A stretch of 63,049 nt of DNA, filler included, from Atractiella rhizophila (lineage: Eukaryota): the NCBI GenBank assembly GCA_021432655.1. It is 4 parts of 4 records of this genome, joined end to end, with 100 filler letters (N's around TTAATTAATTAA, not from the genome) between each part and the next. Parts side by side here need not be neighbours in the genome. Positions count along the whole stretch, not along the records: positions 1 to 27,849 come from MU271741.1; 3 more parts are not named here. One strand, 5' to 3'. Position numbers and translations under genes: made by a program. The notes beneath the pieces are model-generated. The model saw only the letters and a program-made list of their open reading frames with translations, did no database searches and was not told where the DNA came from. Shown here one piece after another: positions 3,609 through 16,118 of this stretch; position 1 is the first letter of the stretch; every line of letters starts with the position of its first letter.

Positions 3609-4388
3609 ATTCGCTTGCTAATACTTTGAGGCTTGATGAGATCGAGGAGCTTTATATTCCTCTCTAGATCTGCTGGAGTCGATCAACGCTTCTGAAGACA
3701 TCGTTTTCCTTCACTTAGACATGGCCTCCACTTGGATAGTCTTGTCAAGCCTCTCCGCCCCCTCCTCTGCCTTTACACTACAGGTGAGGGGCGGTTCGAG
3801 AGCGGCTGAGGAAACATGACATGGAGAAAGAGCGCTTTGCCGGTTCTGCAGTAAGGTCCAAGTGCCAGGATGCAAAGTGGAGGAACGGCAGCGGCGGAGA
3901 AACTCAGCAGAAGCTAAACGCCGATGAAAGGGGTAGAAGACGGATATGTTTTGTCGCAGAACGCGTGAAGCGTTGGGCAAGTAAGCAGGAGCAGAGCCAA
4001 CAAAGGACTAATTGTCAAAAGCTGACAGCGAGACCACACAGTCTCTTGTGATTGATTGAGGTGATATCGTAATAGATCCTCTGTGGACACAAAGTCAAGC
4101 ACCAAACAGCACGAGTGTTCTGCTTCTGACAAGCTTGTAAAACTGAGAGGACGCAAATGTTGACTATCCCTGCAGTTGGCCTCCTACGACAACCGTGCTC
4201 AACAATTTTTGAACAGAAACTCCTTAAAGGAAGTACAGGCCTATAGCGGTTAACATTTTGAGCTTCGGACAACAAAGATGATGTTCTGAATACACATATT
4301 CTGGAGTACACAGCTTCTAGGACTGAATTAGTTTCTGTTCATCAGTCTCACAAACACACCGTTTCTGATACATAGGCACTGAAAACTT

Positions 4389-6092
4389 TTATTTTCCACT
4401 TCCGCTAGAAGCAGCCTCGAGCCCTTGCTCCAGGTCTGCTCTCAAATCCTCAAAGTCTTCCACGCCAATCGACAAACGGACTGTGACCGAAATGTTGGCA
4501 TGCTTCCATCACATTGAAAAAGAGGAGCGCACCTAAACGGGGATCTTCTGTAGGATCAGAGAGTAAACGCTGCTCGATCAAACTCTCCACTCCTCCTTCA
4601 ATTGCAGTCCCGAACAAGGCAGAATATACCATTAGCATTACCTCCAAACTCATAGGTAGAAATGAGCATACCAAGAGACGTTGCCGGCTTCGGTGAATGT
4701 TCAGCAAGAATTGCCGGGGGAGAAACTCAAATCGGCGTACCGTAAAGAGTTTCAACGCAAAAGGCAGGCGTGCAGCGGCATCCTTATCCTTCATCTATCG
4801 CTCGCTCTCAGCCTCGATCTCTGCTTCTGAGCAGCGAAGGAGTGTGCATACAAAGATTGAAAAGCAGGCAGGTCCCGCCTCGAGTTGTTTTCCTTTCCCA
4901 ATCAATCCCTCCGCTCCTTCCTGCAGACTCGCATGCCACACCTTCTCTACGTCCTTCCTCCCGTTCAACCACTGTGCGATCTTTGTTCCGGTTTCAGCTT
5001 GTTTAGGAACACGCAAATGGAGCGTGCGCAAGGAGCGCAGGACGAGCCATTGTTCCATCGATCCAGGAACAAGTCCAAGGTAAGTTCGAGTGTGCCAGAG
5101 AGAGTTCCAGGTCTCCATAGATTTAACGGAGATGGTGCCCATGAGAGCGTCGGAGTGGCCACCCTTCGAGCAATGCGCAGAGGTGAGGGTGGTAATGACG
5201 GAGAGAAATTAAAACCGTACGAAATATTTCGTTCCGCTGTGCATGATTACATCTACCCCCCACTTAAAGGGATCTGACAGAGGAGGAGGCGCTAAGGTGG
5301 AGTCAACCACAAGAATTCCTTGTTCTGGAAGCTTCTTTCGATCTGTCATATATCTCTCCCGTCAGTATGGTAATTGGTATGAAACGGAGGGGACAAACAG
5401 AACGCAAGGTCTCGAACCTCTCCTGTTGGGTTCAACGGGGTCTCCACCCAAGCAAGTGTTTTAGGATGAGTGAACGGTTGCGAAAGATCAATCAATTTCT
5501 GATTCCAATCGATTTAGTAAGTGTCTAATGTGGTTCATATAAAGGGACGCACCACATTGTTTGAACCCTTCAGCTCGACATATTTCTTGATAACCATATG
5601 CACGCCGTGATATCCCTTTGTAATAGCAATCACTTCCTGCCACCCGCATCTCAGCTTGACCTCGATGTTGACGATTGGAGGGAGGTTTACTGGTTGATAG
5701 TGCATCAGCACTCCGAAAGCTGCGCTCAATCCACTTCCGTAGACGATGGTATGCCCTCCAATAGCCGCAGAAAGAACTTTCTCGAGTCGATAAAGAACGG
5801 GCGTTGAATACCTTCACCGGAGACAGCAAAAGTCAAAATCGCAGCAGATAAAGGACCACGTAGGTTTACCGGGAATAAAGGTATGTCTTTGGGTCCTCTG
5901 GATCGAATTCTACGAACTCCCCATCAGTGGAAGGAGTATGCCGGAAAGTGGTTGTGAGCCTGGAAGTCACAGTTTAGCACTAGAAATAAAAGGAAGAAAA
6001 AGGTGAACAGACGAGATCGAAGGTGCGACATCTGCTCTTTCGTGAGCGTCATCGGCATGTAGAAGAGTGGTGCCTAATTGTTGTGGTGACAT
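4389..6092 (-). CDS. Cys/Met-metabolism PLP-dependent lyase (cystathionine gamma-synthase/lyase family), copy 1
   Basis: Spliced model MSPQQLGTTLLHADD...VAPSIS, GYHG, VVDSTLAPPPLSDP, PLP-lysine motif HSGTKYF|GGHSD, WLVLRSLRTLHLRV, ATSLGGVESLIEQR; ends ...SGSGK-TAA. Confidence 0.9.
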
Positions 6093-7186: not shown

Positions 7187-9966
7187 TCAATGCCTCCTCT
7201 TATCTTCATCCTCCACCTCCTCATCTGCTCCCCTTACCCGACTCCGATCCTCCATCCTCACACTCGCACAATCAATCGCGTCCTCCGGCTTGACACCAAT
7301 GTCTTCCTCCACTAACCTATCGTATCCATACTTGCACCATCCATACCTCGTCTTCCTCAAAATCATCTCCCTCAATTTCGGATCGAACTTATTCCACGCC
7401 GAGAAAGCAGGTGACTTCCTCGAGTAATAAGGCTGATTCGAATCCGTGCCATTCGGGTTGAAAAGGGAGCAACTGAGGTTCGGAAGAGTAGGGCGATATT
7501 CCTGAGGTAGGAGGAAAGCGAGAAGTCCGAGCATCTCAGTCAAAGTGTTCGAACGAAGATCCTCGTATCTCATCACGTGAGTGGCGATTGGCGCGTCGTC
7601 CCAGTAATTCGTATGCTGGATCCATTGATCTGCGAAGCCGCTGACTTGCGTCCACTGGGAGAGGGGAATGAAGTCGTTCTCAGAGTGCCAAGAGTGATCG
7701 CGCTCTCCAGCTTCGTTTTTCGGTGCATGACGGAAATTCCAATATGAGTAGATGGCATCGATGGGGTTCCTCACTATCATTCATCGGTAAATTAGCGGCC
7801 ACATCAAAGCGAGGAGTGAAGGGATCAAGGACGAACCGAGATGAACTGTCTGATCCCACTGCCTCCAATAGTCCTCGATAACATCCCCGGTCAAGACGGG
7901 ATAATGAGTCTTAATGAGCCACTTCTCGGTCCTGTCGCACTCTCCCAAAAAGGTCTTCCTCAGCGCCGGATCACAATAAATCGAGCCCGTCCTGAAACCC
8001 GTCGTTTTCTCCAACAACGATCGAATGTACGAATTGCCGCTCCTTGGGAAGGTGACAAGTCCAGTCTTCGGTGTGCTGTCCAGGGTAGGGAACTGGCTCG
8101 TTTCAACATGGGAGTCTGGGCAGGAGCCGACGGTACCGGAAAGAGTGGCGAGTTGTTCCCCCCATGTTGCCTGTTGTGCGATAGTTTCGGCGAGGAGTGA
8201 AGAGTCGAATGCCTTCTCGAACGGGTTGAGGTTGTGGAAGGTTGTTTTGAGGCTTTCGGTGTCGACGGACGGCAGAGGAGTACCGAGGAAAGGGGAGATG
8301 ATGATGGAAAGGATGAGAGGAACGAGGACCGGGATTCCGTACTGCTTGAATGCTGCATCACGAACCGAGCACGAAAGAATTAGTATGGATGTTCGTCCAC
8401 AAAAAAAACGTTTAGCTTTGGGATCGCATTCAATTTTTCACACTTCACACGTTGACAACCGTCGGAACTTTGGACGGTTTCTGAAAATACCACTCCGTCT
8501 TCCCGAGTGAGTCCAAGATAGCCATGCGAGGCATAAATAGAGATTTTGTTCTCCTTCAGAGCTACAAATAACCCGCATGGTCTCTTAGGCCAATTCTCCT
8601 CCCCTCCAATCCCCAAACGAAAGCGAAAGCGAGAGCAAGAAGAAAAAGAAGACGTACGTCCGCCAGGTTTAGGTTTCGACACCTCAGGAAGATCGGGCAA
8701 AAACTTTTCTTCCTCCATATCCCTCAAATTCCGACTCGTAATGCGAGCGTGGCTCCTGGTGTCCTCCCTCGAATAGCTGCGTCCATGGCTCCTAATCTCT
8801 CGTTGTCCTTCTCCTCCAGAAGTCGGTTTCGGATCATCGAATCTTTTATCCATCTTTATCCACACTCCACTTCCTACCCATCCAACTCCCAGCCAGCCAG
8901 CGCCGCCGATCTTTCCTAGGTTTCCAAAGATACCAGCATTGATGAGAATGCCAAGAAATTGGCGAACCGTCATTATTGTCGATGACATGAGGGCTCCAAA
9001 ATTGGATATGGTGGATAAAAGGACGACCAGGCCAAGACAGGAAGTGAGGGACAGGAGGATGATGGATCCTCCCACGCTGAGGGGGTATTTGACGATGAGA
9101 AGGAGAGATGTGCCGACGGAGGAAGTGGGGGAAGAGAAGTGAGAGAAGACGAGGGTGATGAAGCTGATGGCGCAGGCGAAGAAGTTGACCCACACCATCT
9201 GGTCGAGGATGGGCGAGTTGGCAGTAAAAGGATTCATCCCGCCTGATGCACCGGCATCCTTGCTCTTTCCGAAGACGCGCTCCTGTGTCGTCGACGTAAG
9301 GCCGTCGAAGAAGAGATATCCGAGCAGGAGTGCAGCGCCGAGGAATCCTTCCCATCCGTCTGCTCCCTCTTTTCCTTCGCTCTCCTCTCCGCCGAACCAC
9401 AGATAGGTCGCACCTCCGAGGACAACTAGCGAGGCACCGATCCATTCTCGGGTCTTATGGCTCTTGCCGTAGATGCATTTGCCGACGACGAGGACAGGTA
9501 CCATTTTCACTGTCTTTGCCAGAGATTGGGTTGTGAAGGAGACATGCTTGAGTGCCTCGTATTGGCAAGTAGTGGAGAGGAAATTAAATATGGAGACGAG
9601 GAAGTAGGCATAGATTGGGGAGGCAGGCATGAGGAGAGATAGGATTGATTGACCTGGTACGGGCTGGTGGGAAGGAGAGCGCATACGGAGCGAGAGGAGC
9701 ATGAATGCTCCTGTCGTGCAGGAAAAGAGGCGGTTGAAGAAAACTAGTAGTGGAGAGGAAGTAAAGCGCTCTTCATTCTCTCCTATACAACGGAGCCTTC
9801 AACGTCCCGCAGCTCTTGCAGCAGAGGGAAAGCACAAACCATAAGTGCCTTTCATGATCTTCTCTTGCAAAATGCCATAAAGACTGTACAAAACGAAGAT
9901 CCCTATTCCATGAGCGAGGAGGCCCAGGCCTCCCCCTCCATCGGCACGATGTGAGGTGGCAGTCAT
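7187..9966 (-). CDS. Predicted fusion of a UAA-family (SLC35B/PAPST-like) nucleotide transporter, a TM anchor and a PAPS-dependent sulfotransferase domain
   Basis: Exon 1 MTATSH...GIFVLYSLYGILQEKIM. Transporter motifs LVFFNRL, CQYEALKHVSFTTQSLAK, LFFDGLTSTTQE, FGALMSSTIMTVRQ. A phase-compatible intron 8657-8353 joins to an exon with sulfotransferase 5'-PSB motif TFPRSGNSYIR, IKTHYP, 3'-PB motif VRNPIDAIYSY and MRYEDL. Confidence 0.8.
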
Positions 9967-10951
9967 TTGAATGAGTGTTGTCCAAAGAGTGTTCTGCGCC
10001 AGCCACCTATGAACTCGCCCGTGCCATAAGAGAACAGGAAACTCACGTCTTACACGTATGCTTGAATCGTCTGAGTGAGGAATTTTAAAAAACGAGGCCT
10101 TTCCTTCGTGGTCGTTCTGGCTCTTCTGGGACTCCGGAAAATTCGAACGGTAACCTAAAACACAGTCTTGGCGTCGATGCTGGGCTCTCTAAAGTAGCTT
10201 CTACTTCTAATTTTGATAGATAATGCGAGTTTGGTTAGCAAGGGAAGTCGATTTGGAGGAGGGTAGCTTTATGGAATATGATGAAGGGCTACGGGCTACG
10301 GAGGTCCGTGTGGTTGTCAACTTCGGGAACGAGGAAAAGGGGGAGAAGGAGCTGCGAGCTGCTGCTCCGCCGGCAGACCTTCTGTACATTCATGTGAGAG
10401 AAGAAAGGAACAGGAGTGGTGTTCTCCAAGGGCAGTCATGTATTGTTTGGTCAATAGACCTGCGAGAACCTGAGCCCCGGAGCAATTTATTGTCCAGTGC
10501 TTTCAGCAGTTCATTGCCGTCATCGGCATGAGTGCGGAATCCGATGCGGAGCTGTCCCATCTCTCCCTGTACATTTTGTGTTTCTTCATCCCTTACTGGC
10601 TATTGTGCGAAAGGAAAAGAGGCATCCGCAAGGGATATGAGTGTCTTCTATGGACTTCCATTGTATTCTCATTAGATCAATTTAGATGGCAATGTTTTTA
10701 ACCCGTTCCTGCTCACTAATGCGCGCCTCTCCAGTTGTATTTGGTGTGATACTGAAGAAGGGCTTAAGCAGCTCCCTAACGGAAATACAACACGTCTCGT
10801 GATTTGGCAAAGAGTTATCTTGATTTTCACTTTGCAGGCTCCTTGATTCTTCCGTCATTGCCAAACCATGATATTTTGCTTTTTTTACTTGAGGTTGACT
10901 CTGAGGATCTGAGGGGAGAACAGACATTTTCGCCAATGAAATTTCGATCAT

Positions 10952-11898: not shown

Positions 11899-13629
11899 AT
11901 GTCATCAAAAAAGCTAGGCACGAGCCTTCTGCACGCAGATGACTCTCACGAAAGAGCAGAGGTCGCACCGTCGATCTCGTCTGTCCCTCTTCTCTTTCGC
12001 TGTGCTATCTCCCAGCTAACGAATAGCTCCAAGGCTATCAACGACCTTCCGTCACATTCCTTCAGCCGACAGCGAGCATGTACAATTTGACCCTGTAGAC
12101 CCAAAGACACACCTTTATGCTCGGTAGCGTCATCTTGTCCGTCTGGCTGCCGTGCCTTTAGTGTTTACTGTTTCGGCGAAGGTACTCGACCCCGATTCTT
12201 TATCGACTCGAAAAGGTTCTATCTGCCGCCATCGGAGGGCATACAATTGTCTACGGAAGTGGACTGAGCGCCGCGTTCGGAGTGTTAATGCACTATCAAC
12301 CAGTGAATTTCCCAATATTCGTCGTCGAAGTTAAACTGAGATTCGGGCGATAGGAAGTGATTGCCATTACGAAAGGGTACCATGGTGTGCATCTCGTTAT
12401 CGAGAAATATGTTCAGTTAAAAGGTCCGCAAAACGTGGTGGGTCCCGTTCTCTTTCTTTAACACGCCCAACATGTCGATAGTGAGTGTGCGGGAGAGATT
12501 AGAAGTTGATTGATCTCACGGAACCATTCACTCATCCGAAAACATTGGCGTGGGTAGAGACCCCCTTGAACCCAACAGGAGAGGTCCGAGACCTTACTTT
12601 CTGTTTGTCAGCTCTACTTTATGCGAGTTATTCAAACTGACGGTTGGAACTATGGAATAAACGTATTGCAGATCGAAATAAACTCCCTACAGAAGGAATC
12701 CTGGTAGTTGATTCCACCTTAGCGCCTCCCCCTCTGTCCGATCCCTTCAAATGGGGAGCAGATGTAATCATGCACAGCGGAACAAAATATTTTGTGCGGC
12801 TTTAACATTCCTCCGCTCTTATCAGCTTCTTACCCCACTATGAAAAGGGAGGTCATTCGGACGCTCTTATGGGCACGCTCTCTGTCAGGTCTCTCGAAAC
12901 CTGGAAATCGCTTTGGCACACACGTACCTACCTTGGACTGGTCCCAGGATCGATGGAACAATGGCTCGTCCTGCGCTCCTTGCGCACACTTCATTTGCGC
13001 GTCCCAAAACAGGCTGAGACCGGAACAAAGATCGCACAGTGGTTGAACGGAAGAAAGGAAATAGAAAAAGTTTGGCACGCCAGTTTGCAGGAAGGAGCGG
13101 ACGGATTGATCGGGAAAGGCAAACAATTAGAAGCTGGACCAGCCTGCTTTTCAATCTACGTATGCTCGCTTACTCTCTCTCCTGAGACGCAGAGACGGAG
13201 ATTGATCCTGGCTGATAGATGAAGGATAAAGATGCCGCCGCACGTCTGCCTTTCACTTTGAAACTCTTTACGGTGCGCCAATTTGTGTTTCTCCCGTTCC
13301 AGTTATTGCTGAATATTCACTTTAAAGCCGGCAACGTCCCTTGGTATGCTCACTTTTACCATGAGTCCGTATAAAGGCTGATTACATATTCTGCTTCCAT
13401 GGAATAACAGGAGGAGTGGAGAGTTTGATCGAACAACGTGCAATCTCTGATCCTACAGCAGACCCTCGCTTAGGTGCAATCATTTCTATCTAATTAGACC
13501 TCGCTGACACAATGATATTTGCACATAGTCCGTTTGTCGATTGGAGTGGAAGACTTTGAAGATTTGAGAGCAGACCTAGAGCAAGGTCTTGAGGCTGTCC
13601 ATAGCAGGAGCGGAAGAGCAAAGTTGTGA
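11899..13629 (+). CDS. Cys/Met-metabolism PLP-dependent lyase, copy 2 (C-terminal PTS1 -AKL)
   Basis: MSSKKLGTSLLHADD..., HSGTKYF|GGHSD and the same exon structure as copy 1 including a 16-nt micro-exon (13328-13343); ends SGRAKL-TGA. Confidence 0.9.
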
Positions 13630-13860
13630 ATGATCAGTGAGTGAAAGTACATCCATGTTCTGAGACTGATGAACAAAGACTGATTCGGTTTTAGAAGTTT
13701 CCCTACTCTAGAAAATGCTTCACAATATGAGCACTTCGTACAAAACTCGTGATACATCGTGTGGCAGCCGCTCTCAACGATAAATAGATACTTTGTATAA
13801 ATGAACAATGCGAGCTATTCATACAATCCATTGTGTACATTCTTGTCTAAGTCTAACGTA

Positions 13861-16118
13861 TCACCACTTAACCGCCAATCCATTAACTTCCTCATCCTCC
13901 ACAAGTCTATAAGAAGTGCTCAACCAACCCTTTCCTTCGTCCACCTCTCGCTTCACCCGTGTGGTCCATTCTCCAGCATTTGCCTTGGGTATCAATAACG
14001 GCAGGATAGTAGGATGGATGTCCCCATCCTCCACTCCATTGGGCATAAGCGTGACACTGTCGTCCCAATACGCTCGCTCGACCTGCTCAATCCAACTCTT
14101 TCCGGCGTCTACGACAGGCATCCCCTCTGCATCTTTCACAAGTTCACGCGGCGGAGGGATTTGCCCACCTCCGTTTACGCAACCTGATGGACAAGCCATC
14201 ACTTCGATGTAGTCGTATTCCTTCTCTTCTCCGACTTTCACAGCGGCGGAGTCGCGCACACGATTGATGCCACTACCATTTAGACGAGCACGCCGGCGTC
14301 CACCTCTCAGTGGGACCGCTGCGTCAGAGCTAGGAGAGCTTTTGGAGACCTTCCGAACCATATTCTGGAGGTTCTTGAATCCATAACACTTTGCCCCCTT
14401 GAATATTATTTGGTCCTTCTCGAACAGTAAATAGTCTTCAAAATCCCCACCTCCACGATTGTGCGCTACTTCAAGGCGGAGGTGAGGGATACGGGTGGGA
14501 GGAAGAGTGGAGAGGAATGCCTGAAGGGCATTCTGGAGGTAGGATCCGGAAGAGGTGCCACTTGAACTCGGCAAGGAGGGGAGTATCGAGGATTCTTCGT
14601 CGTCTTCGTTCGCAGTGAATGTATTTGAAAAGGAAGACAGCGAGAAGGAGCGCGATTGCATTAGTTTCTCTAGTTCGCCAGTTGTGAGAACACAGTCGAC
14701 CTGCCGCACCGGTTCTGCTGATGCTGCAGTCAAAGAGTCCGCTTGCTCAGTGGTGTGGAAGTCTGCTCTTGAGGCTTCCAGCTTCTTATCGAAGCACATC
14801 ATGATAGACACGTGATAAATGTTCTCCTTCCTATACACACAACATCAACTTCACAATATTGCAACAATCATAAAAGGAGACGAACGAGACGCCAATTTTC
14901 TTTGACAACCATCCTTCCTTGACCATCCACCCCATAACCGCCATCGGACTCTTTACCTTACTCAATCTCGGCAGTAACACGTCGGCGGACGATCTTGTTT
15001 TCTCAGCATAGCACACGAAGCCAGGACATGCGCTGGAGAGGATAGGGAGAGGAAGTTTGCTTGTAGATGCTTCGCTCGAGGCTGCCATCGAAGTTGGAAG
15101 GGAAGAAATGAGTTCTTCCGACGCTTGATCGAGGACAAGAGAATGAGCGAATGTGGTATCTAACACCAGCCTGAACCTCCATCAGCTGTCGTTATTTCAG
15201 AACGAGAGGTTGAAAAACAGACCGGAACCCGAGCACGCTCTTGAAGAAATGTCGTATGCCATGAAGCGTCTGCCGCTTTGAAATTTTGTGGTAAGCAGCT
15301 AAGGAGGCGAGGGATTGAGGCGAGATGGTGACGACAGGGACTAAGTTCTAGAAGAAATCTCAGCATGGGCGCGAGCGGAAGTAACGGGCTGACATACTGG
15401 ATTTGCTGACAGTGCGCGGAACACCTCTTCATGAGACTGCATGGAGACAAGGATGGATTCCGCTGAGGTTATGCAGCCACTGCGAGATAATAAAGGTTAG
15501 TCAGATGAACTCAGTCTAAGAAAGATACTGTAATGGAGTGAAGGGTTTCACATCCAAGGTGTAGGAAGGAGGACGTCGTTCAGACACTGTTGTGATGAAA
15601 GACTCTTGTAGTTCTGCACATCCAGACCAAGCTCTAAGGCATCAAACATCACGAGTAACTTGCACCTATTTTGAATCGAATCAAAAGGTGCAAGGTAGAA
15701 TGAATCAGCACGCAATTGCCATTACGTATCAGTATTCTTACAAAGAGCAGAACTTTTTTTCTGCGACAAAACTGATCATCTTCATATGTACCAAAACTCG
15801 AATGATACATAAGTGTCAACTAAGCATAATACAGCTATCGACTTCACTCTCACTCGATATCGCTAGCCTTTGGCTGCTACCAATTTTCTGCACTTCAACA
15901 AAGAAGACATACCTGCAAGCCAAACAATCGCTTAAACTGATTTCAGCTTTCTTCAGCTCCCCGACATCCTCCTCGACCCCAATCTGCACTTCTCCTGCCA
16001 AATTTGATGTCGCTTGCCCCTTCTTCACTGTTTGTACTGGCTTGATGCATACAGCTGAGGGAGTGAGGTAGTCAGATAGATCATTGACAGAGAGAAGGGG
16101 AGAAAAGTTGGAGGCCAT
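13861..16118 (-). CDS. NAR1: Cytosolic Fe-S cluster assembly factor Nar1 ([FeFe]-hydrogenase-like)
   Basis: DYLTPSAVCIKP, ISLSDCLAC|SGCITSAE, SSACPGFVCYAEK, IMMCFDKKLEASR, YGFKNLQN, IEVMACPSGCVNGGGQ and terminal W. Confidence 0.93.

Follow-up and report, generated by a model that had tools for sequence, protein, structure and literature searches.

Sulfation of the Golgi type requires a carrier for 3'-phosphoadenosine 5'-phosphosulfate (PAPS), the molecule that donates sulfate, and an enzyme in the lumen; to our knowledge, baker's yeast possesses neither. The Golgi PAPS transporters SLC35B2 and SLC35B3 (PAPST1 and PAPST2), which belong to Pfam family UAA, supply PAPS to lumenal sulfotransferases, and the fused carrier is expected to do likewise. 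The subject of this report is a gene on the minus strand (9966 to 7187) of a 63,049-nucleotide (nt) stretch of DNA, filler included, from the fungus Atractiella rhizophila (assembly GCA_021432655.1); this stretch is referred to as the window, and its positions 1 to 27,849 come from record MU271741.1. In this gene a putative PAPS carrier of the same Pfam family is predicted to be covalently joined to the enzyme that would consume its donor, unlike SLC35B2 and SLC35B3. The gene probably specifies a 784 amino acid bifunctional membrane protein, in which a PAPS import carrier and a tethered lumenal sulfotransferase are produced together.

Other described systems share parts of this architecture. 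Human SLC35B1, an ATP/ADP exchanger of the endoplasmic reticulum (ER), has the same 10-helix core and neither the extra helix nor the enzyme domain, and its score against the transporter half (64 bits) lies below those of the PAPST-named relatives (84–125 bits). Type II Golgi sulfotransferases carry a single membrane helix ahead of the catalytic domain; such a helix is likewise present and conserved in the fusion, its orientation being predicted. Among these enzymes WSCD1 and WSCD2 are sialate O-sulfotransferases in which one membrane helix precedes a lumenal domain with both cofactor motifs, and orthologues are reported in deuterostomes (PMC9304399). The fusion likewise has a membrane helix ahead of a domain with both cofactor motifs, a likeness drawn from that description. 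The cytosolic SULT, plant SOT and bacterial StaL/Teg enzymes share both cofactor motifs, the catalytic Lys-x-His and an acidic motif with the fusion enzyme, as well as its fold (Z 11–14), at an identity of only 14–18%. They are soluble and have Lys in the first motif, whereas the fusion enzyme follows a membrane anchor and has Arg at that position and six conserved Cys residues.

The coding sequence (2,355 nt) is made up of four exons on the minus strand, 9966–9840, 9782–8658, 8352–7837 and 7773–7187, and extends from a start codon at 9966 to a stop codon at 7189–7187. The introns between the coding exons are 57, 305 and 63 nt long and all three are bounded by GT..AG. A preliminary description of this locus had proposed a donor at 8657, a branch point with acceptor, and a junction carrying the transporter frame into a sulfotransferase exon at 8352. 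The GT donor was found at 8657, a branch-point-like element lies approximately 27 nt upstream of the AG acceptor, the exon resumes at 8352, and joining 8658 to 8352 keeps the frame. Also borne out was the remark that no in-frame methionine precedes the first cofactor motif, the sulfotransferase exon lying in a stop-to-stop frame (7781–8437) that is Met-free upstream of it. Intron 2 contains no in-frame ATG able to start a separate sulfotransferase, the ATG frames there being short or out of frame, and the unspliced transporter frame would stop at 8380. A tblastn search of the window with the public protein P0002, described below, returned only this locus, and thus no second copy of the fusion gene was found there.

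RNA evidence was taken from assembled contigs. Twenty-four runs are listed for this stretch, and four of them (X15, X1, X2 and X4) were compared. The records describe X4 as a metatranscriptome; for X1 and X2 RNA is a guess, and X15 is of unspecified type, but all four lack the introns. With X15 possibly derived from the source organism's own project, three independent studies remain. Contigs from all four runs join 8352 to 8658, so that exactly 305 nt are left out, bounded by CT..AC when read on the plus strand. Such agreement goes beyond coincidence. The summed depth of the three spliced contigs in X15 is 6535 versus 25.4 for the sole unspliced contig (8328–8685), an approximately 250-fold difference. 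X1, X2 and X4 each hold one contig that spans the joint with at least 255 nt on either side, and show zero cover within intron 2. A contig of 2,000 nt from X2 (record 18) runs from 7497 to 9921 and includes transporter and sulfotransferase with all three introns gone, and both halves are also bridged by a 1,142-nt contig from X1 and an 827-nt contig from X4. The contig sequences differ from the window at many positions, which indicates that several strains express the same spliced form. Transporter and sulfotransferase are therefore parts of one spliced mRNA, as the preliminary description had proposed; the outcome that it held to be contrary to its proposal, transcripts ending at 8380 together with an independent sulfotransferase mRNA, is contradicted by single contigs spanning both halves. 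The features of the gene, all on the minus strand and in the order of transcription, are as follows.

10047–10100, minus strand: 5' untranslated first exon, upstream end approximate; RNA contig cover ends between 10102 and 10103, and no ATG was seen by eye.
9994–10046, minus strand: intron of the 5' untranslated region, 53 nt, GT..AG; joint 9993/10047 with CT..AC on the plus strand in X15 (depth 1568) and X1.
9840–9966, minus strand: coding exon 1, with the start codon and first transporter helix, residues 1–42 plus one base of codon 43; the translation matches the start of P0002.
9783–9839, minus strand: intron 1, 57 nt, GT..AG; joint 9781/9839 in four of four runs.
8854–9782, minus strand: first part of exon 2, the UAA/SLC35B core through helix 10, residues ~43–352; from Pfam, the SLC35B1 match, Foldseek and the invariant columns.
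8658–8853, minus strand: last part of exon 2, a basic linker, residues 353–417, predicted to be cytosolic; from the AlphaFold confidence scores, coordinates derived by hand.
8353–8657, minus strand: intron 2, 305 nt, at the seam of the two halves; skipped exactly in four of four runs.
7837–8352, minus strand: exon 3, with the anchor, the stem, the first PAPS-binding motif (8050–8030) and the catalytic-His motif (7912–7898); motif coordinates derived by hand.
8282–8335, minus strand: eleventh membrane helix (anchor), residues ~424–441, within exon 3; from the hydropathy peak, the predicted helix, conserved columns and the Lys/Arg bias.
7774–7836, minus strand: intron 3, 63 nt; skipped in four of four runs, with joint 7773/7837 in X15 and X1 and joint 7775/7839 in all four.
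7187–7773, minus strand: exon 4, with the second PAPS-binding motif (7771–7745), the remaining sulfotransferase domain (PF00685) and the stop codon at 7189–7187.

The first ATG noticed downstream of the end of the RNA cover (~10100) is the one at 9966. The 2-nt shift of the intron 3 joint is best explained if other strains carry a single synonymous change at position 7838, where the last complete codon of exon 3 lies, and not by an alternative splice site. Intron 2 is an outlier in length when compared with the other introns of the gene (57, 63 and 53 nt), and a scan of the surrounding region (8300–8720) against Rfam gave no match at E≤1. Its position at the seam allows the speculation that it is a relic of a former intergenic spacer. 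A rare variant of the intron in the 5' untranslated region (window 9990–10047) was also seen in X15 at a depth of 4.5, its joint being shifted by 3 nt with three additional letters between the sides.

A search with exon 4 of the window retrieved P0002, an NCBI protein of 751 amino acids from A. rhizophila, which is named 'UAA-domain-containing protein' and for which both Pfam families are precomputed. It has the same junction as the 784-residue model, and four substitutions separate the two over the 751 residues that align. Directly behind the anchor P0002 skips two stretches of 14 and 19 residues (residues 435–448 and 455–473; window ~8309–8268 and ~8249–8193), which resemble two micro-introns. 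Since RNA contigs from X1, X2 and X4 run through 7839–8352 without a break, these skips look like artefacts of gene prediction. The gene model is thus already public and is misnamed: the records name the transporter only, with no mention of a sulfotransferase, and the Atractiella model omits 33 residues that are present in RNA. Both points of annotation are corrected here.

Ten helices make up the N-terminal half, which belongs to the UAA/SLC35B family of carriers. Exon 2 alone matches Pfam UAA (PF08449) with 94.9 bits (cut-off 26.2; E-value=6.5e-27), and the best match of the half among solved proteins by sequence is human SLC35B1 (E-value=6.8e-17), over residues 21–367, covering all ten helices at approximately 26% identity. 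The AlphaFold model of the near-identical P0002, computed from 77 aligned sequences, has a mean predicted local distance difference test score (pLDDT) of 84.6. When this model was submitted to Foldseek, SLC35B1 (9grz, 9i20) was again the best solved match, with a template modelling (TM) score of 0.85 (range 0.82–0.87) normalised to the target, and was followed by carriers of CMP-sialic acid, triose-phosphate and GDP-mannose. All 11 of the invariant columns in an alignment of 39 stand-alone relatives (A1) are kept in the transporter half.

The C-terminal part, of approximately 340 residues, is a PAPS-type sulfotransferase domain in which the cofactor and catalytic positions are conserved. Exon 4 alone gives a match to Pfam Sulfotransfer_1 (E-value=5e-4) that, with 20 bits, falls just under the cut-off of 22 because the domain is split by an intron; on the whole of P0002 the family (PF00685) is precomputed, and a scan of 28 relatives recovered it at E≤0.001 in 22, the highest score being 52.1 bits. 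At E≤0.01, a profile of 23 relatives gave matches to 48 distinct sequences of solved sulfotransferases, with SULT1C3 (E-value=3.9e-13) first, followed by SULT1A3, Teg14, Teg12 and StaL. In the alignment to solved sulfotransferases, each of the two cofactor motifs has its counterpart, as do the catalytic Lys-x-His and an acidic motif that comes after the second of them. Eight residues (R488, S489, G490, N491, K532, H534, R558 and S566, in the numbering of P0002) are conserved, each in at least 52 of 54–60 sequences. The two PAPS-binding motifs named in the preliminary description are thus present, align with those of SULT1C3 and are near-invariant in the family, and the UAA and sulfotransferase domains that it had assigned to a single gene have both been recovered by domain and fold searches, on spliced RNA and in a conserved architecture.

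With the whole 751-residue model, Foldseek matches to sulfotransferases were weak (TM 0.4–0.55), and the fold search was made with the model of a sulfotransferase-only relative, P0025 (42% identical, pLDDT 82). The matches of this model included SULT3A1 (Z 13.8, root-mean-square deviation 3.4 over 199 residues), SULT7A1 (13.4), TPST1 (11.7), and NDST and 3-OST (~10); all 22 top rows were sulfotransferases or the related retinol dehydratase. Foldseek with the P0025 model ranked Teg14, Teg12, plant SOTs and cytosolic SULTs first. In an Atlas feature search the cluster nearest to the enzyme half, with a score of 0.96 and 194 features in common, bore the name 'WSCD family member'; oomycete and ciliate sulfotransferases came next. 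A relationship to WSCD may be taken as a lead only; no WSC domain was found in the three exon translations of the window or in the 28 relatives scanned. Of the other additional domains sought in those relatives, none belonged to the fusion family.

The linker that follows helix 10 comprises approximately 70 residues and has pLDDT values below 50 over residues 365–407 of P0002; the 71 residues leading up to the anchor include 15 Lys/Arg and 13 Asp/Glu. The hydrophobic anchor that the preliminary description placed between the halves was readily recognised, having a hydropathy of 2.19 over residues 423–441, the strongest peak after the transporter. Its core sits in a long predicted helix (P0002 residues 417–457), and the corresponding block of columns is conserved among fused relatives. 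Eight Lys/Arg residues occur in the 40 residues before the anchor versus two in the 40 residues after it. Six Cys residues in the enzyme domain are near-invariant, an even number that would suit three disulfides. The domain also contains two sequons. Among ten sulfotransferase-only relatives that have an N-terminal region, nine have a hydrophobic segment there, although two of these nine group within the fused clade and could represent pieces of fused proteins.

The alignment to SLC35B1 and the helices of P0002 place both ends of the 10-helix core on one side of the membrane; in the SLC35/UAA family this side is the cytosol. With the core ending on the cytosolic side and one more helix following it, the enzyme should lie on the other side of the membrane. 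A lumenal location of the enzyme domain, which we infer, is favoured by the charge bias, the six Cys residues and the anchored stand-alone relatives, and the conservation of the anchor among fused relatives is in keeping with it.

Relatives with the same architecture are widespread in one part of the basidiomycetes. When 1.84 billion representatives were searched in full with HMMER, 2,904 matches reached E≤0.001, the best of which were proteins of 675–971 residues matching both halves. A word-indexed search gave 39 matches, 25 of them with both Pfam families precomputed; those that are named all come from Pucciniomycotina (Atractiella, Rhodotorula, Rhodosporidiobolus, Sporobolomyces, Microbotryum, Meredithblackwellia, Pseudohyphozyma and Phenoliferia). 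The lineage was checked for three species, and the remaining named genera are presumably Microbotryomycetes. Our own domain test of 184 fetched proteins found both halves in 52, the transporter only in 107 and the sulfotransferase only in 25; those of the 52 that are named all belong to Pucciniomycotina. One fused relative of 757 amino acids is encoded on a contig of 2,593 nt and must therefore be a single uninterrupted frame. The fusion is thus a real, conserved and uncharacterised architecture, new in its combination of known parts, and belongs to a broad family that is not singular to this genome.

Several genomes hold more than one copy: Rhodotorula toruloides has at least four distinct proteins, and in Rhodosporidiobolus microsporus two loci on the same contig are separated by five gene numbers. 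Paralogues a few genes apart on the same contig were noted in R. microsporus (locus tags ..002748/..002753) and Sporobolomyces ruberrimus (..004444/..004448), a spacing that suggests local duplication or a small cluster of fusion genes. A number of public models (P0006, P0011, P0082, P0175 and P0153; 957–1,593 amino acids) are over-long and look like neighbouring genes merged by prediction; what they carry in addition is another piece of sulfotransferase preceding the transporter, a domain of aldose 1-epimerase (Aldose_epim), or PWI/RRM. Aldose_epim, PWI and RRM, which occur in three over-long models, were rejected as domains of the family.

Trees were constructed for the two halves separately. 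The transporter tree contained 129 rows covering at least 270 domain positions, P0165 being left out as a near-copy. All 39 fused rows fell into one clade of 49 (support 100), and none was found among the other 80 rows. The ten unfused rows in this clade include five gene models from Pucciniomycotina, of which four end with the anchor block, and hence look truncated. The sulfotransferase tree (64 rows; rows of fewer than 150 positions, P0001, P0165 and P0006 left out) recovered the same subgroups, with nine stand-alone enzymes as outgroup. The concordance of the two trees points to one ancient fusion followed by duplications. They indicate that the fusion arose once, in an ancestor common to Atractiellomycetes and Microbotryomycetes, and was then duplicated; the duplications suggest several acceptor specificities.

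The following mechanism is the most likely. Residues 1 to ~352 would form the 10-helix carrier, and the basic linker would stay in the cytosol with the carrier's two ends. The eleventh helix would cross the membrane and so place the C-terminal sulfotransferase in the lumen of the secretory pathway. The carrier would exchange cytosolic PAPS for lumenal 3'-phosphoadenosine 5'-phosphate (PAP) or AMP, in the manner of SLC35B2 and SLC35B3, and the tethered enzyme would take up PAPS at the carrier exit and transfer its sulfate to an acceptor in transit through the ER or Golgi. What is predicted in this scheme is that the mRNA yields a single stable polypeptide, how the protein is oriented in the membrane, that the cargo is PAPS, and which compartment and acceptor are involved. 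A more far-reaching proposal, which we advance tentatively and hold to be somewhat less than an even prospect, is that the protein represents a self-contained, transport-coupled sulfation module of the Pucciniomycotina, in which an antiporter hands over PAPS and removes the inhibitory product, and each paralogue writes its own sulfate mark on cell-wall, secreted or lipid molecules.

Several observations weigh against a PAPS carrier joined to a lumenal sulfotransferase, and have to be set beside the alternatives. That X1 and X2 are RNA is a guess, and X15 may originate from the project of the source organism; cleavage in the linker is possible, the single stable polypeptide being deduced from the mRNA and its frame. 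Both trees were made with FastTree only, and the topology relies on a crude hydropathy scale. The first cofactor motif has Arg where Lys is canonical, in 52 of 52 sequences; tyrosylprotein sulfotransferases likewise have Arg at this position. PAPS as cargo is the weakest link, drawn mainly from the fusion itself together with the automatic names of relatives. A profile of stand-alone relatives retrieved six informatively named proteins, four of them called PAPS transporter (two from Porphyridium and two from JGI) and two UDP-galactose transporter (Riccia), and one fused relative is automatically named PAPS transporter 1. One PAPST-named protein of Porphyridium scores 107.6 bits versus SLC35B1, which is close to its 125 bits versus the transporter half. 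It is unlikely, in our estimation, that the transporter of the fusion, the latter being real, carries a nucleotide other than PAPS (ATP/ADP as in SLC35B1 or a UDP-sugar as in HUT1), or is a mere scaffold or localisation device, with PAPS provided by another carrier. Such a cargo would agree with the narrow margins in bit score, with the sole solved relative, SLC35B1, which binds ADP and AMP-PNP according to the entry titles, with the name SLC35B1 of the Atlas cluster nearest to the transporter half, and with the two relatives named UDP-galactose transporter. It would also agree with the position of the fused clade, which is sister to all 80 stand-alone rows (including four PAPST-named ones) and nested in no named subfamily, in a tree without named references for SLC35B1, HUT1 and SLC35B4. 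PAPS is nevertheless the only small molecule that this class of enzyme needs in the lumen, and most of the informative names of relatives are those of PAPS transporters. Moreover, the fusion has been kept through many speciations and duplications with its halves co-diverging, which argues for a functional link, and a decayed scaffold would not be expected to keep 11 of 11 invariant columns.

The remaining alternatives concern the side of the membrane and the reality of the fusion. Cytosolic and small-molecule sulfotransferases (SULT1C3, Teg14, Teg12 and StaL in the profile search; SULT3A1 in the fold search), and not those acting on glycans, are the closest to the enzyme in both sequence and fold. 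It might face the cytosol and sulfate a small molecule there, with the carrier then exporting the product, so that the protein would serve conjugation and export instead of donor import. We regard this as improbable, slightly more so than a different nucleotide cargo, in view of the conserved and strongly hydrophobic helix that parts the two halves, a charge bias across it that fits a cytosolic linker and a lumenal domain, six near-invariant Cys residues suited to an oxidising compartment, and sulfotransferase-only relatives most of which bear N-terminal anchors like type II lumenal enzymes; we also know of no UAA carrier for sulfated metabolites. Least credible by a wide margin is the supposition that two adjacent genes have been wrongly joined, with the transporter mRNA ending at 8380 and the sulfotransferase having an mRNA of its own. 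It could call upon a gap five times the length of the gene's other introns, the one unspliced contig in X15, the four relatives with transporter-only models and the occurrence of over-long merged models in the family. Against it stand the exact in-frame GT..AG joint in every run compared, its great excess over the unspliced form in X15, contigs that span the halves and a relative whose frame runs uninterrupted along a short contig; in Rhodotorula and Meredithblackwellia the models with a transporter alone still include the anchor block at their end, which gives them a truncated look. A model of separate genes was ruled out by the RNA joints and the missing start codon.

A literature search at the level of titles and abstracts, which extended to sources other than subscription journals and bioRxiv supplements, returned no description of this fusion, of a PAPS transporter, secretory sulfotransferase or secretory sulfation in Pucciniomycotina, or of a donor-carrier/transferase fusion of any sort. 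Sulfation in the fungal secretory pathway is almost unstudied, and a fusion that is conserved, expressed and duplicated predicts sulfated products across a whole subphylum, among whose members are yeasts used in biotechnology (Rhodotorula, Sporobolomyces), pathogens of plants (Microbotryum) and endophytes of roots (Atractiella). The fusion would serve as a natural 'Rosetta stone' in giving an orphan SLC35B-like carrier its cargo, and lends support to the view that donor carriers and transferases act as physical units. If the proposed function is correct, the gene would be the first natural case in which an SLC35 donor carrier is covalently fused to the transferase that uses its donor, offering direct evidence of channelling from carrier to enzyme in the secretory pathway, and would point to a so far unknown class of fungal sulfated surface or secreted compounds, possibly relevant to root and plant association. 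Genetic tools exist for Rhodotorula toruloides, which makes the prediction directly testable.

The fusion gene is flanked by two diverged, inverted copies of a gene for a pyridoxal phosphate-dependent enzyme of Cys/Met metabolism (~4314–6092 and ~11899–13697), both reading away from it. The copies share 11 inverted-repeat segments that are 73–84% complementary, Pfam PF01053 is found on both, and their nearest solved relatives are cystathionine beta- and gamma-lyases. They may represent a sulfur-metabolism neighbourhood or a plain segmental inverted duplication. Beyond them, a minus-strand frame at 13861–14844 matches the C-terminal domain of the iron-only hydrogenase large subunit (PF02906, E-value=1.2e-23) and probably specifies a fungal Nar1-type Fe-S assembly protein.

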